From Promethearchaeota archaeon Loki_b31 (GTDB taxonomy: Archaea > Asgardarchaeota > Lokiarchaeia > Sigyniarchaeales > SOKP01): a stretch of DNA of 64,000 bases. The DNA lies in the NCBI GenBank assembly GCA_005222975.1, contig NJBI01000001.1:64001-128000 (forward strand). Reading direction: 5' to 3'. This document shows, piece by piece, positions 14,186 through 19,530 of this stretch. The notes beneath the pieces were generated by a model, which worked only from the letters and a program-made list of their open reading frames with translations, was not told the origin of the DNA and did no database searches. Made by a program: the position numbers and the translations under genes. Position 1 is the first letter of the stretch; each line of letters starts with the position of its first letter.

Positions 14186-14827
14186 TTAATTTTTTACCAT
14201 TAATTTGTTTATCCAAAATTCTATTTTTTCCTCTAAATATTTTTCAATACTCTCAGAGGATGAATTTTCTGCATCAAACAAATCTGATAACGATTTTGCA
14301 GAGTTTAAACGATTTGTGACTTGTGAGATTTCATAGAGTATTCTATGTCCGCCTGTGAATTCGAAGATTTCTTCTTTAATTTTCTCCAAAATTGATTTAA
14401 CGGCTTGAGGATCGTCGCTATCTTCTAAATCCGCTTTTAAATCGTTTAATTGGGATATTATAGATTCTTTCTTGTCTGTTGCAGATTCGTTTCTTTCTAT
14501 AACATCTTCTACGCCTTCTTTTTTAGAAGGACTTATGTTTATATTTATAATCAAGGATTTAATTAAGTCTAAATCTTTTTCTAAAATTTTCTGATTTTCA
14601 ATTACATTACTCAATTGAGGTATTAGACTTTTAATGTCAATAGTAGCCTTATCTAGCTCGTTAATTTTATCAGTTAGTTGTGTAATTTTCAAATTTGTCT
14701 GTCCCATTTTTGTTATAATATCTAAACCAAACTTTTCAAGTATTGAGGAGAAAGCGCCAATTTTCTCGTCGAACTCTTTAAAAGACTTAGACAAATCGTT
14801 TAATGTAAGGTCGTTAGGTTCTTCCAT
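14186..14827 (-). CDS. Coiled-coil protein with a C-terminal helical-bundle domain
   Basis: Heptad-rich N-terminal half; the last ~90 aa resemble the C-terminus of 56390-58603. Confidence 0.75.
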   Translation of the reverse strand: MEEPNDLTLNDLSKSFKEFDEKIGAFSSILEKFGLDIITKMGQTNLKITQLTDKINELDKATIDIKSLIPQLSNVIENQKILEKDLDLIKSLIININISPSKKEGVEDVIERNESATDKKESIISQLNDLKADLEDSDDPQAVKSILEKIKEEIFEFTGGHRILYEISQVTNRLNSAKSLSDLFDAENSSSESIEKYLEEKIEFWINKLMVKN

Positions 14828-15054: not shown

Positions 15055-15939
15055 ATGATTCAATACATTAATATATTGACCCGAACTGGAAAATCTTTGC
15101 TATTCAGGAATTATGGTAGTTCTGATGTGGATAGAGACTTATTAGCGGGATTTTTAAGCGCTTTTTCGGGGTTTATGAAAGAAATAAGTCAAAGCGACAT
15201 AAAATCCACGGCTACAGACGAGTTTAAGTACTATTATACAATTATTGATGAGATTATAATTGTAGTATGCACGGATCTTGTGGATGATGACGCTGTAGTT
15301 AACTCGAAAATTACGACGATAAGAGCAAAGTTCATTGAAATGTATGGAGAACTTTTAGCGAGTGGTGATTGGACCGGAAATCGCGCTATTTTTACAAACT
15401 TTGAAAGAGAGATTGACGATACGATTCTTGGCTCTATAAAAGTATCTATTATAGGAATTGGAGGCGTTGGAAAATCTACGCTCCTACGCTTAATCTGTGG
15501 CAAAGAAGTCGATTTAGAATACGTTCCAACAATAAATGTTGACATAGCTTCTTTTAACGGAGAAGAACTTGATGTTCCTCGTTCAATTGTACTTTGGGAT
15601 TTTGCGGGGCAGAGCAATTATCGGTCTTTATGGAAAAGTTTATTGGATAATACTGACTTAGCTCTCCTAGTGCTTGATTCTAGTTTTGAGAATGTAAACT
15701 ATAGTAAAGATATTATTCGGGATATTTTAGATTTTTATTATAAGGATGTTTTAGTCATTGGAATCGCGAATAAACAAGATTTGCCAAATAGGTTAACACC
15801 TAAATTTTGTGAAAGGATATTGTCCGAAACGGAAAGGGACCCACCTATTAAAGTCCACGGAATGATTGCAATTAATCCCAATTATAGAGAGAAAATTCAC
15901 GCAATCTTAAGAGAAGCCATAAATAAAATTCTTAAATAA
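15055..15939 (+). CDS. Longin domain-small GTPase fusion
   Basis: N-terminal MIQYINILTRTGKSLLFRNY...LLAGFLSAFSGFMKEI (longin pattern); C-terminal GIGGVGKST, PTI, WDFAGQ, NKQD. Confidence 0.88.
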   Translation: MIQYINILTRTGKSLLFRNYGSSDVDRDLLAGFLSAFSGFMKEISQSDIKSTATDEFKYYYTIIDEIIIVVCTDLVDDDAVVNSKITTIRAKFIEMYGELLASGDWTGNRAIFTNFEREIDDTILGSIKVSIIGIGGVGKSTLLRLICGKEVDLEYVPTINVDIASFNGEELDVPRSIVLWDFAGQSNYRSLWKSLLDNTDLALLVLDSSFENVNYSKDIIRDILDFYYKDVLVIGIANKQDLPNRLTPKFCERILSETERDPPIKVHGMIAINPNYREKIHAILREAINKILK

Positions 15940-17835: not shown

Positions 17836-19530
17836 TTATATCTCCTGAACTATTCCAGGTATTATAATACTATTAGATTCTATCCTTAAAATTCCTTTTT
17901 CTTGAAGACTCTTCATTGTACTTAATACTTTTTCTTCGTCCCACTTTAAACCATTCAAGAAGTTAATTTTTTTCAATGGTTTTTTATTTGTTGCGAATTT
18001 AATGAACTTTTTTTCGACAGCGTTTAATTCTACATCTTTAAACAAATAATATATGACTTTACCAATCTTAAATGATTTAAAGATCAATTTCAATTCAAAA
18101 AGTTGGGCTAATACGGATAAAATTACTTCGTTAGCAACATCTGTGATTTCTTGATCTATAAATTGCTTTATTTTCTCGTATTGAGAGAACCCACCATTTA
18201 TTAAAAAGAACTTTTCGTGGTAGCTCAAGATTTTTTGAGAAATAGTTTCTTTTAATTGAAGTTCTTCTTTCTCAACATATTCTAAATCTAATGGCTTATT
18301 GAGCGTACTTTTATCTTTAACTGCTTCTTTTTCTCTGGTTTTTGGTAAGCTTTTCACAGCTGGTTTTGTAGCAAATTTAATTTGTGGTAATTCTTCAATT
18401 TCATCTAAACTTGTATCTTGTAGATCATCTTCAATCTTAGGTTGTTTTTTCTTAGGCGGTGTTTTTGGAATTTTCACGCTTTGTGTTTTTTTTAATCGTT
18501 CTTTTAATCTAGCCTTCAGCTCTAATTGGCGTTTAAGTTTTTCTTGTTCTTTAACTTTTTCTCTCTCTAAATGTTCTTCTATTTTTTCGTTCCATTTTTT
18601 GCGTTCCTCGAATTCGCTAAATTCTTCAATAACAATGTGATCCGCCTCCTCAATATGAATAATTTCCTTTTTCTTCAATGTTTCAATAATTTTATTTGCA
18701 TAAGTGTAATCCCAACTGGTTATATCTAATAATTTTTGAATAGTTAGATCTTCGTCTTCGTAAGCAAAACTTAAAACAACCTTTTCTGGATTCGATAGCT
18801 CGATTTTTTCGGCAGTAAACACCATTATATGAAAGGTTGGGTTGATTTCTATAATGTCACTTAGAAGCTGTGTTTTTTTCATCAGATTTAGAACGGGCAA
18901 AAAATCGTCGTTTTTTATACTCTTAATATTTGTAAATGCGTGGTATTTAAATTGTTGTATAGGAATTATTTTGAGTTTATCTAAATCGTAGTCTTTAATG
19001 ATGGAATTAAATTTGCGAGACATTTTTTCGTAAAACATTCCAACTCCGACGTTTGCTTTTTTCGCGTCAATGTTATCCAAAAACAAATCGAAAGATTCAA
19101 GCTTTTCAATTGCACCCTCAAGATTTTCAAAGTCTTGCTTTAATTCTTCTTCGGATTTTGGCAAAGCAGACTTATATCCTGCCGAAAAGACCCGATATTC
19201 CTTACCTGCTTTTTTGATAACTTGTATTTCTTTATCTTTAAGCTTAAATTGCTCCTCAGCAACTTTTATCTTCTTTTTAACTGTTATTTCTACTTGTTTT
19301 TCAGTTTTTGATATAATTTGAGATATTTTAGCTAATTTCTTCTTCACATCGTCTTTTTTTTCTTCGCTAATAAATTTCTCAATATGGATTTCTTTTTTTC
19401 TTAGTTCCGCTAGAACTTCCTTTTTTTCAAGATATTTTTTATAACGAAGAGTTAATACAATGTAAAAAATTAATAGTAGAACTGATACAAATAAAGCAGT
19501 AATAAAAACGAACATTGTTAGTGGACTCAA
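17836..19530 (-). CDS. N-terminally membrane-anchored protein with two EAP30/Vps22-Vps36-like (ESCRT-II) tandem winged-helix modules
   Basis: TM helix aa ~5-28, coiled coil, module 1 (VGVGMFYEKM...DDFLPVL...ELSNPEKVVL...SWDYTYANKIIETLKKKEII), P/K-rich linker, module 2 (NGGF...ELNAVEKKFI...LKWDEEKVLSTMKSLQEKGIL...IPG). Confidence 0.65.
   Translation of the reverse strand: MSPLTMFVFITALFVSVLLLIFYIVLTLRYKKYLEKKEVLAELRKKEIHIEKFISEEKKDDVKKKLAKISQIISKTEKQVEITVKKKIKVAEEQFKLKDKEIQVIKKAGKEYRVFSAGYKSALPKSEEELKQDFENLEGAIEKLESFDLFLDNIDAKKANVGVGMFYEKMSRKFNSIIKDYDLDKLKIIPIQQFKYHAFTNIKSIKNDDFLPVLNLMKKTQLLSDIIEINPTFHIMVFTAEKIELSNPEKVVLSFAYEDEDLTIQKLLDITSWDYTYANKIIETLKKKEIIHIEEADHIVIEEFSEFEERKKWNEKIEEHLEREKVKEQEKLKRQLELKARLKERLKKTQSVKIPKTPPKKKQPKIEDDLQDTSLDEIEELPQIKFATKPAVKSLPKTREKEAVKDKSTLNKPLDLEYVEKEELQLKETISQKILSYHEKFFLINGGFSQYEKIKQFIDQEITDVANEVILSVLAQLFELKLIFKSFKIGKVIYYLFKDVELNAVEKKFIKFATNKKPLKKINFLNGLKWDEEKVLSTMKSLQEKGILRIESNSIIIPGIVQEI

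Follow-up and report, generated by a model that had tools for sequence, protein, structure and literature searches.

The gene and the architecture of its product

The stretch of DNA analyzed here (the window) comprises 64,000 nucleotides of the genome of Promethearchaeota archaeon Loki_b31 (contig NJBI01000001.1, positions 64,001 to 128,000). On its minus strand, an open reading frame at 17836..19530 encodes 564 amino acids when read from a TTG codon at 19530 to the stop codon at 17836-17838. [quoted passage not shown] The true coding sequence is probably slightly shorter (17836-19515, 559 amino acids) and starts at an ATG at 19515, five codons after the TTG, because homologs and the ESM Atlas record begin at this position (residue 6, MFVF...). 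Close homologs are 558 amino acids long. Residue numbers given here count from the TTG.

A word-indexed protein search recovered 58 full-length homologs (E <= 1e-96, 39-94% identity), all of them without a function name and, where an organism is named, assigned to Promethearchaeota, Lokiarchaeota or Thorarchaeota. With HMMER, 88 of 1.8 billion cluster representatives (50% clustering level) were matched, 74 of them below 1e-10, and the family representatives found in this way range from 520 to 770 amino acids, with identities down to ~23-30%. An alignment of 31 family sequences (A1), on which the AlphaFold model and all statements about position conservation are based, has a mean column identity of 51%, and its conserved positions are distributed along the whole length of the protein, with the exception of a linker. 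The numerous full-length homologs and representatives and the domain order that they keep therefore establish that the gene is real and under selection. An artefact or a chance reading frame was considered and is ruled out by an architecture that has been kept across ~100 full-length sequences.

The full-length AlphaFold model (mean predicted local distance difference test score, pLDDT, 73.9) consists of helices at residues 3-153, a helix and two winged helices at 161-300, a further helix at 307-351, a disordered region at 353-415, and another helix with two winged helices at 416-556. Residues ~6-28 (19447..19515) form a predicted transmembrane signal-anchor helix. This is the sole hydrophobic segment of the protein (Kyte-Doolittle maximum 2.98, with nothing else above 1.6), and 88 of 100 full-length members begin with an uncharged span (median 23 amino acids) that has no lysine or arginine before it and a median of five within the next 15 residues. 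When the positive-inside rule is applied to this charge pattern, the N terminus would lie outside and the remainder of the protein would be cytoplasmic. The anchor is followed by a conserved K/E-rich helical stalk (residues 29-153; 19072..19446), which is modeled as helices 3-53, 56-116 and 127-153 and may be a coiled coil or a set of single alpha-helices. Nearly invariant stalk positions in A1 are K65, L66, I73, T76, K87, K89, E101, I105, Y112, P124, D133, L137 and L144.

Module 1 occupies residues 161-300 (18631..19050) and module 2 occupies residues 416-556 (17863..18285). Between them lie a K/E/R-rich helix predicted by AlphaFold (residues 307-351; 18478..18612), in which W313 is invariant in A1, and a disordered K/P/E-rich linker (residues 352-415; 18286..18477) with pLDDT values below 50 at 353-419. 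The linker varies in length, such that the span from the end of module 1 to the start of module 2, which includes the helix, measures ~80 to ~335 residues across the family. Two short conserved sequences lie outside the folded modules and may serve as docking motifs. The first is P.IKF..KP.VK.LP in the linker (residues 382-396; 18343-18387), which is seen in A1 only and in which F386 is nearly invariant. The second is [IV]PG[IV].Q in the C-terminal tail (residues 557-564; 17839..17862), where A1 shows Q562 as invariant and I557, P558, G559 and I560 as nearly so, and which was found in 66 of the 100 full-length members. In homologs with longer linkers, a DDLIGAMEALD helix precedes module 2 and mirrors the sequence L..AI..LES.D before module 1; this helix has been lost in the query lineage.

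Much of this layout had been anticipated by an initial annotation that was made from the letters of the window alone. Both the N-terminal transmembrane helix and the stalk that it described are borne out, the former by the hydrophobic segment and the family charge pattern and the latter by the modeled helices and conserved positions. The two similar modules that it placed at 19050-18640 (residues 161-297) and 18255-17850 (residues 426-561) match the AlphaFold boundaries. Also, every motif that it quoted from the protein is present, namely VGVGMFYEKM (161-170), DDFLPVL (208-214), NGGF (445-448), ELNAVE (499-504) and LKWDEEKVLSTMKSLQEKGI (528-547).

Relationship of the modules to Vps22

Homology to Vps22 emerged only with family profiles and structure models and not in searches with the single protein. 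The program phmmer returned nothing from the PDB sequences, and the sole match of the protein in Pfam was to a NirdL-like helix-turn-helix (HTH) domain (E 0.028); no GLUE, PH or zinc-finger domain was found in the same search. The initial annotation had expected two matches to PF04157, and this expectation failed for the protein itself. Two of the 31 family members do match Pfam EAP30 (E 3.4e-6). Furthermore, the family profile and the separate module profiles align collinearly with human SNF8 over both winged helices, albeit weakly (E 0.018-0.36). Of the human SNF8 strings that the initial annotation had cited for comparison, the HMMER alignment to 3cuq_A contains NGGL..., ELNMDH... and LKWETERARQVLEHLLKEGL; LGVGDFYYEL was not displayed in any alignment.

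Stronger matches were obtained by comparing profiles with profiles. When a profile of 31 diverse Asgard Vps22 sequences was used with hhalign, module 1 matched with a probability of 95.7% (E 1e-8, 131 columns) and module 2 with a probability of 95.8% (E 6.7e-9, 131 columns), whereas a Vps25 winged-helix profile that served as the negative control matched the modules with a probability of only 0.4-0.5%. In a six-frame search of the window's genome, the only match of a hidden Markov model (HMM) of module 2 was to the canonical Vps22 (E 4e-6). The same HMM gave weak matches in four other genomes, in three of them to the canonical Vps22 (frames of 238-242 amino acids, E 3e-7 to 2.6e-4) and in one to a 485-amino-acid frame.

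Comparisons of predicted structure point to the same family. The top three Foldseek matches to the full-length model are human SNF8 3cuq_A (3.7e-6), 2zme_A and yeast Vps22 1u5t_A, with root-mean-square deviations (rmsd) of 2.8-3.8 Å over ~140-150 columns; next in that search come SelB, RPC34, Nse1 and ScpB, at 9-12 Å. VIA-align superposes residues 412-564 (module 2) on residues 45-231 of 1u5t_A (Z 13.6, rmsd 2.7 Å, 150 residues), and the Z scores of module 2 with human SNF8 are 13.5-14.4. Module 1 modeled alone (pLDDT 83.6) also has SNF8 3cuq_A as its top Foldseek match (E 1.6e-5), and it superposes on 2zme_A with Z 12.7 and an rmsd of 3.0 Å over 144 residues. When module 1 was compared with 48,161 representative chains independently of Foldseek, the top two were 3cuq_A (Z 12.0, 143 residues) and 1w7p_A (Z 11.6, 141 residues), ahead of MarR-type regulators. 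Vps22 chains thus rank first for both modules in the comparison with ESCRT-II structures that the initial annotation had proposed.

Matches to other winged-helix families must be accounted for. Taken one at a time, the winged helices match HTH domains of the MarR, TrmB, Crp, DnaD_N and Phage_rep_O families in Pfam, but weakly (E 1e-4 to 1e-2), and none of the single-winged-helix matches in Pfam (E 1e-4 to 3e-2) reaches its cut-off. MarR-type regulators reach Z scores of 9-10, but these superpositions cover ~60 residues and a single winged helix. Other proteins with tandem winged helices (SelB, RPC34, Nse1, ScpB) align at rmsd values of 9-15 Å, and only Vps22 chains cover the helix and both winged helices at ~3 Å. 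The concern that generic winged helix-turn-helix domains might fit the modules better than EAP30 is therefore not borne out, given that Vps22 alone fits the whole module and does so with a profile probability of ~96%.

Internal duplication of a Vps22-like unit

The two modules resemble each other to a degree far beyond chance. BLASTP aligns them with 23% identity over 99 residues (E 6e-4), and hhalign does so with a probability of 98% (E 2.1e-13, 131 columns). In nearly every full-length member, the module-1 and module-2 HMMs cross-match each other's position. The order of a transmembrane segment (1 to ~30), module 1 (~120-305), a variable linker and a C-terminal module 2 is likewise shared by almost every full-length member, including those with identities as low as ~26%. 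Because the domain order and the cross-matches extend across the family, the duplication predates its radiation. These alignments indicate that the modules arose by internal duplication of a Vps22-like unit before the family spread through one Loki-type Asgard order.

The modules are nearer to each other than to canonical Vps22, and both are more similar to Vps22 than to Vps36 (Foldseek values of 8.6e-3 and 2.1e-2 with 3cuq_B, compared to 1.6e-5 and 3.7e-6 with 3cuq_A). The duplication is thus an internal Vps22-like one and not a joined pair of Vps22 and Vps36. The initial annotation had proposed a single-chain, ESCRT-II-like fusion that would mimic the eukaryotic heterodimer. Its two Vps22/EAP30 modules in one chain stand, both by profile and by fold, and its comparison with a Vps22-Vps36 heterodimer does not, as both modules are Vps22-like.

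Distribution among Asgard genomes

Counts within the window's Asgard order were made with the module-1 profile, since the full-length profile under-counted (13 of 28 in the window's own taxonomic family). The protein family was matched in 36 of 61 genomes of the order, representing 17 of 19 genera. By taxonomic family, f1 contributes 20 of 41 genomes (21 of 42 if the genome of the window is included), f22 contributes 11 of 14 and f29 contributes 4 of 4. Beyond the order, the full-length profile gave no strong match in 130 genomes of 25 other Asgard families; what matches there were proved weak and fell on short frames (250 and 256 amino acids), one of which is a canonical Vps22. Among the genomes searched, then, the anchored double form is seen in one Asgard order only, which answers the question of Asgard-wide distribution that the initial annotation had raised.

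In five near-complete genomes (91-100%) the family was not found with any of three queries, and the module-2 query gave only matches of the canonical Vps22 type. At the two syntenic sites without the gene that were inspected, an AMP-binding enzyme gene is present in one and TetR and FtsX-type genes are present in the other. Tandem paralogs occur at locus L007 (6198-7946 and 8001-9674; 582 and 557 amino acids), where the first is 47% identical to the query. The family is also present in two closed single-contig genomes of the order, L090 (6,035,313 bases) and L089 (4,361,485 bases).

Gene neighborhood and the ESCRT genes of the genome

Upstream of the gene, 170 bases of very AT-rich spacer separate it from a divergent acyl-CoA dehydrogenase gene, and downstream it faces a convergent phosphoglucomutase-like gene. 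Given this arrangement of divergent and convergent neighbors, the gene is monocistronic and forms its own transcription unit. Farther along lie a plus-strand gene for a longin-small-GTPase fusion (15055-15939; Roc/Arf/Ras matches at ~1e-14) and, divergent from it, a minus-strand gene for a coiled-coil protein of 213 amino acids (14186-14827). A block composed of genes for the acyl-CoA dehydrogenase, the anchored protein, the phosphoglucomutase-like protein, the longin-small-GTPase fusion, the coiled-coil protein (~205 amino acids) and a small GTPase is conserved in order at loci whose ortholog of the anchored protein is 43-47% identical. At three loci of the second taxonomic family, f22 (L089-L091), the ortholog is ~26% identical and the block is rearranged, with all members but the small GTPase within 10 kb. 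Two further loci (L092 and L093) lack the linkage. At the distant loci, genes for inositol-1-phosphate synthase-like, CBS, prenyltransferase and no-known-family proteins lie between the ortholog and its conserved neighbors.

The gene under study is on contig C61 of the assembly, and a canonical ESCRT cluster is on contig C14 (L102:5563-9280). This cluster encodes a Snf7-family protein (minus strand), Vps4 (plus strand; MIT-AAA-Vps4_C), Vps25 (plus strand; PF05871, E 6e-12) and a Vps22/EAP30 protein of 238 amino acids (minus strand; PF04157, E 2.4e-9). Elsewhere on the same contig, C14:35145-35375 holds a 77-codon fragment that is 91% identical to residues 86-162 of Vps25, is interrupted by two TAA stops and looks like a decayed partial duplicate.

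The genome carries a third Vps22-like protein as well, encoded on contig C96 between a WD40 gene and an SPFH/Band-7 gene (L101:4057-5436; 459 amino acids), whose C terminus is matched by the Asgard Vps22 HMM at E 2e-7. In other Asgard families (L094-L099), proteins of 386-849 amino acids have a single C-terminal Vps22 module and lack an N-terminal anchor. Five long single-module forms that match the Vps22 profile are likewise without an N-terminal anchor, and one of them has a hydrophobic segment at 48-71. As these proteins show, the EAP30 module has been widely reused in Asgards.

Comparison with known systems

ESCRT-II is among the eukaryotic signature systems that have been traced to Asgard archaea. 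The eukaryotic complex is built on a Vps22-Vps36 stalk, which forms when the EAP30 subunits pair via their N-terminal helices and first winged helices, and the C-terminal winged helices each dock one Vps25. Vps25 in turn recruits the first ESCRT-III subunit. The complex is soluble and is recruited peripherally to membranes by lipid, ubiquitin or ESCRT-I.

Asgard genomes have been described as carrying one Vps22/Vps36-like gene each, and Asgard Vps22 homodimerizes in Heimdall- and Loki-type lineages, where it replaces Vps36 (Hatano et al. 2022, PMC9192718). Makarova et al. (2024, PMC11188069) describe a Vps22 fused to a steadiness box and another form with winged helices and Zn ribbons, and an EAP30 protein that is double or has a transmembrane anchor does not figure in their main text. 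In a preprint of 2025 (bioRxiv 10.1101/2025.11.01.685982), the ESCRT-II of Promethearchaeum is covered only as VPS22, VPS25 and an OB-fold 'VPS36', and a 2026 structural-clustering preprint reports two Vps22 clusters and describes no architecture. The multidomain variants known from PMC11188069 and from the 2025 preprint are soluble. Overall, a membrane-anchored, internally duplicated Vps22 protein was not found in the published Asgard ESCRT literature searched, with supplementary tables falling outside that search.

Each module shares with the Vps22/SNF8/EAP30 family (PF04157; 3cuq_A, 2zme_A, 1u5t_A, 1w7p_A) the same helix and two winged helices (Z 12-14, rmsd 2.7-3.1 Å, 143-150 residues), an NGG that starts the first winged helix and a conserved tryptophan helix in the second. 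Other features set the protein apart from canonical Vps22. The chain has two modules where Vps22 has one, and it has an N-terminal transmembrane anchor and a stalk of ~125 residues where Vps22 is soluble. Its gene is not beside those for Vps25, Vps4 or ESCRT-III, it fails the Pfam threshold, and its occurrence is patchy and confined to one order. It also evolves much faster, with orthologs that are ~40-50% identical compared to 82-100% among the 120 best-listed relatives of the canonical Vps22.

Like the Vps22-Vps36 heterodimer of eukaryotes and the Vps22 homodimer of Asgards, the protein offers two EAP30-type units for an ESCRT-II stalk, which here would be covalently joined. Its duplication took place independently of the split that separated Vps22 from Vps36 in eukaryotes, and GLUE/PH, zinc-finger and OB domains are absent from it. 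The archaeal ESCRT adaptors arCOG09748 and arCOG11741 (Makarova et al. 2024, PMC11188069) and CdvA are alike in concept, in that a helical or coiled-coil scaffold with a winged helix is thought to couple the membrane to ESCRT-III. However, the genes for those proteins lie within ESCRT loci, and their products have one winged helix and are not described as having an N-terminal transmembrane anchor, whereas the protein described here has two complete EAP30 modules. Lastly, cog.002441 (winged helices, steadiness box and Zn ribbons), the OB-fold 'VPS36' and the SPFH-paired Vps22-like proteins all use the EAP30 module as a mobile building block, as this protein does, but each has a single C-terminal module and another gene neighborhood.

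Possible functions

The best explanation that can be offered joins the identity given above to a role as a membrane-resident, ESCRT-II-like platform, and the chance that this combination is right falls just short of even. Weighed by itself, the platform mechanism is a tentative proposal that is somewhat likelier to be wrong than right. According to this mechanism, the two linked modules would pair within one chain, or between chains, to form an ESCRT-II-like stalk. The transmembrane anchor would fix this assembly to the membrane, and the long helices next to the anchor would hold the modules at a distance from it. The resulting platform could dock Vps25 or other winged-helix partners right at the cell membrane and bring in ESCRT-III by way of them. 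In this way, the transmembrane helix would substitute for the lipid- and ubiquitin-dependent recruitment that is typical of soluble ESCRT-II.

The platform mechanism is the most economical reading because the ESCRT-II stalk carries two Vps25 subunits and Asgard Vps22 homodimerizes. Candidate partners exist in the genome in the form of the Snf7-Vps4-Vps25-Vps22 cluster on contig C14. Co-folding of residues 122-564 with Vps25 of the same genome, from an alignment for each, gave a score of 0.01, below the mark of 0.32 that the program requires for an answer, which speaks neither for nor against binding. A stronger version of the proposal holds that the protein is part of a second ESCRT-II that evolved in a Loki-type lineage, wherein a linked Vps22-like pair resides permanently in the membrane and needs no ESCRT-I, ubiquitin or lipid signal to recruit Vps25 and ESCRT-III. 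This version, which is close to the suggestion of the initial annotation that the chain could nucleate Vps25/ESCRT-III without ESCRT-I or ubiquitin, must be considered rather doubtful.

A number of observations weigh against an ESCRT function. No ESCRT gene lies beside the gene at the window locus, as the initial annotation had correctly stated, or in the orthologous loci examined. Of the order's 61 genomes, 25 gave no match to the family. In the genus to which the window belongs it was matched in 6 of 16 genomes (one match being weak, to a 208-amino-acid frame) and in none of the other 10, and a second genus gave no match in 10 of 11 genomes and a weak match to canonical Vps22 in the eleventh. 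Vps25, in contrast, is present in 54 of the 61 genomes. Because its occurrence is patchy within both order and genus, the family must be accessory and dispensable. The protein itself has no EAP30 match in Pfam even at E <= 10, and a scan of the genome with PF04157 (E <= 1) missed its gene. The protein shares no more than 12-17% identity with solved Vps22 structures, so the surfaces that bind partners need not be conserved. A core ESCRT role thus has three points against it, namely the absence of ESCRT linkage, the patchiness of the family and its low identity to canonical Vps22. In addition, winged helices serve varied purposes, and similarity of fold does not establish similarity of function.

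The protein might instead be a membrane-tethered adaptor whose Vps22-type winged helices make contact with proteins that do not belong to the ESCRT-III pathway. Its partners might be the products of the nearby longin-small-GTPase fusion and coiled-coil genes, or ubiquitin-like or SPFH-type membrane modules. Such an adaptor is unlikely on balance, although several observations favor it. The gene stays linked to the coiled-coil, longin-GTPase, phosphoglucomutase-like and acyl-CoA dehydrogenase genes within the window's taxonomic family, and the same linkage recurs in the three second-family loci despite the rearranged block and an ortholog that is ~26% identical. Linkage to ESCRT genes is absent at all loci examined, and the patchy distribution is unlike that of core ESCRT genes. 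Moreover, Asgards use Vps22-like modules elsewhere, as illustrated by the SPFH-adjoining third protein and by single-module proteins of 601-849 amino acids. However, plainly metabolic genes share in the linkage, which may be no more than inherited synteny and which therefore constitutes weak evidence for a partnership with the GTPase and coiled-coil proteins. The linkage is also missing at L092 and L093.

Alternatively, the protein could be a decoy or regulator, which would mimic Vps22 at the membrane, retain Vps25 or ESCRT-I-type proteins there and thereby limit or localize canonical ESCRT-II activity without itself nucleating ESCRT-III. It has the canonical subunit's fold, an accessory and patchy family suits a modulator better than a core part, and some genomes carry tandem paralogs. 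Even so, we judge this role to be quite improbable. Most improbable of all is a membrane-tethered nucleic-acid binder, such as a transcription regulator fixed to the membrane or a tether between chromosome and membrane, with the four winged helices serving as winged helix-turn-helix domains that bind DNA or RNA: the weak matches to MarR, TrmB, Crp, DnaD_N and Phage_rep_O (E 1e-4 to 1e-2) and the MarR-type superpositions in its favor each concern one winged helix, whereas the whole module fits only Vps22 at low rmsd, the profile comparison selects Vps22, in which such domains mediate contacts between proteins, and no regulator-type operon context is found at the loci examined.

Implications

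The EAP30 module itself is well known, and what this protein adds is its occurrence in a membrane-anchored, internally duplicated architecture, found in one Asgard order. A role apart from the ESCRT pathway would widen the range of known EAP30 uses. If instead the protein engages Vps25 and ESCRT-III, it would reveal a way in which archaea that lack endomembranes can tie the assembly of ESCRT to the cell membrane. It would also represent a second, independent duplication of EAP30, parallel to the one that gave rise to eukaryotic Vps22 and Vps36, and it would offer a simple two-component handle, consisting of an anchor and a platform, for reconstitution experiments. Should it prove to belong to a second ESCRT-II, these archaea would possess a built-in membrane nucleator for remodeling events such as protrusion, vesicle formation or membrane repair.

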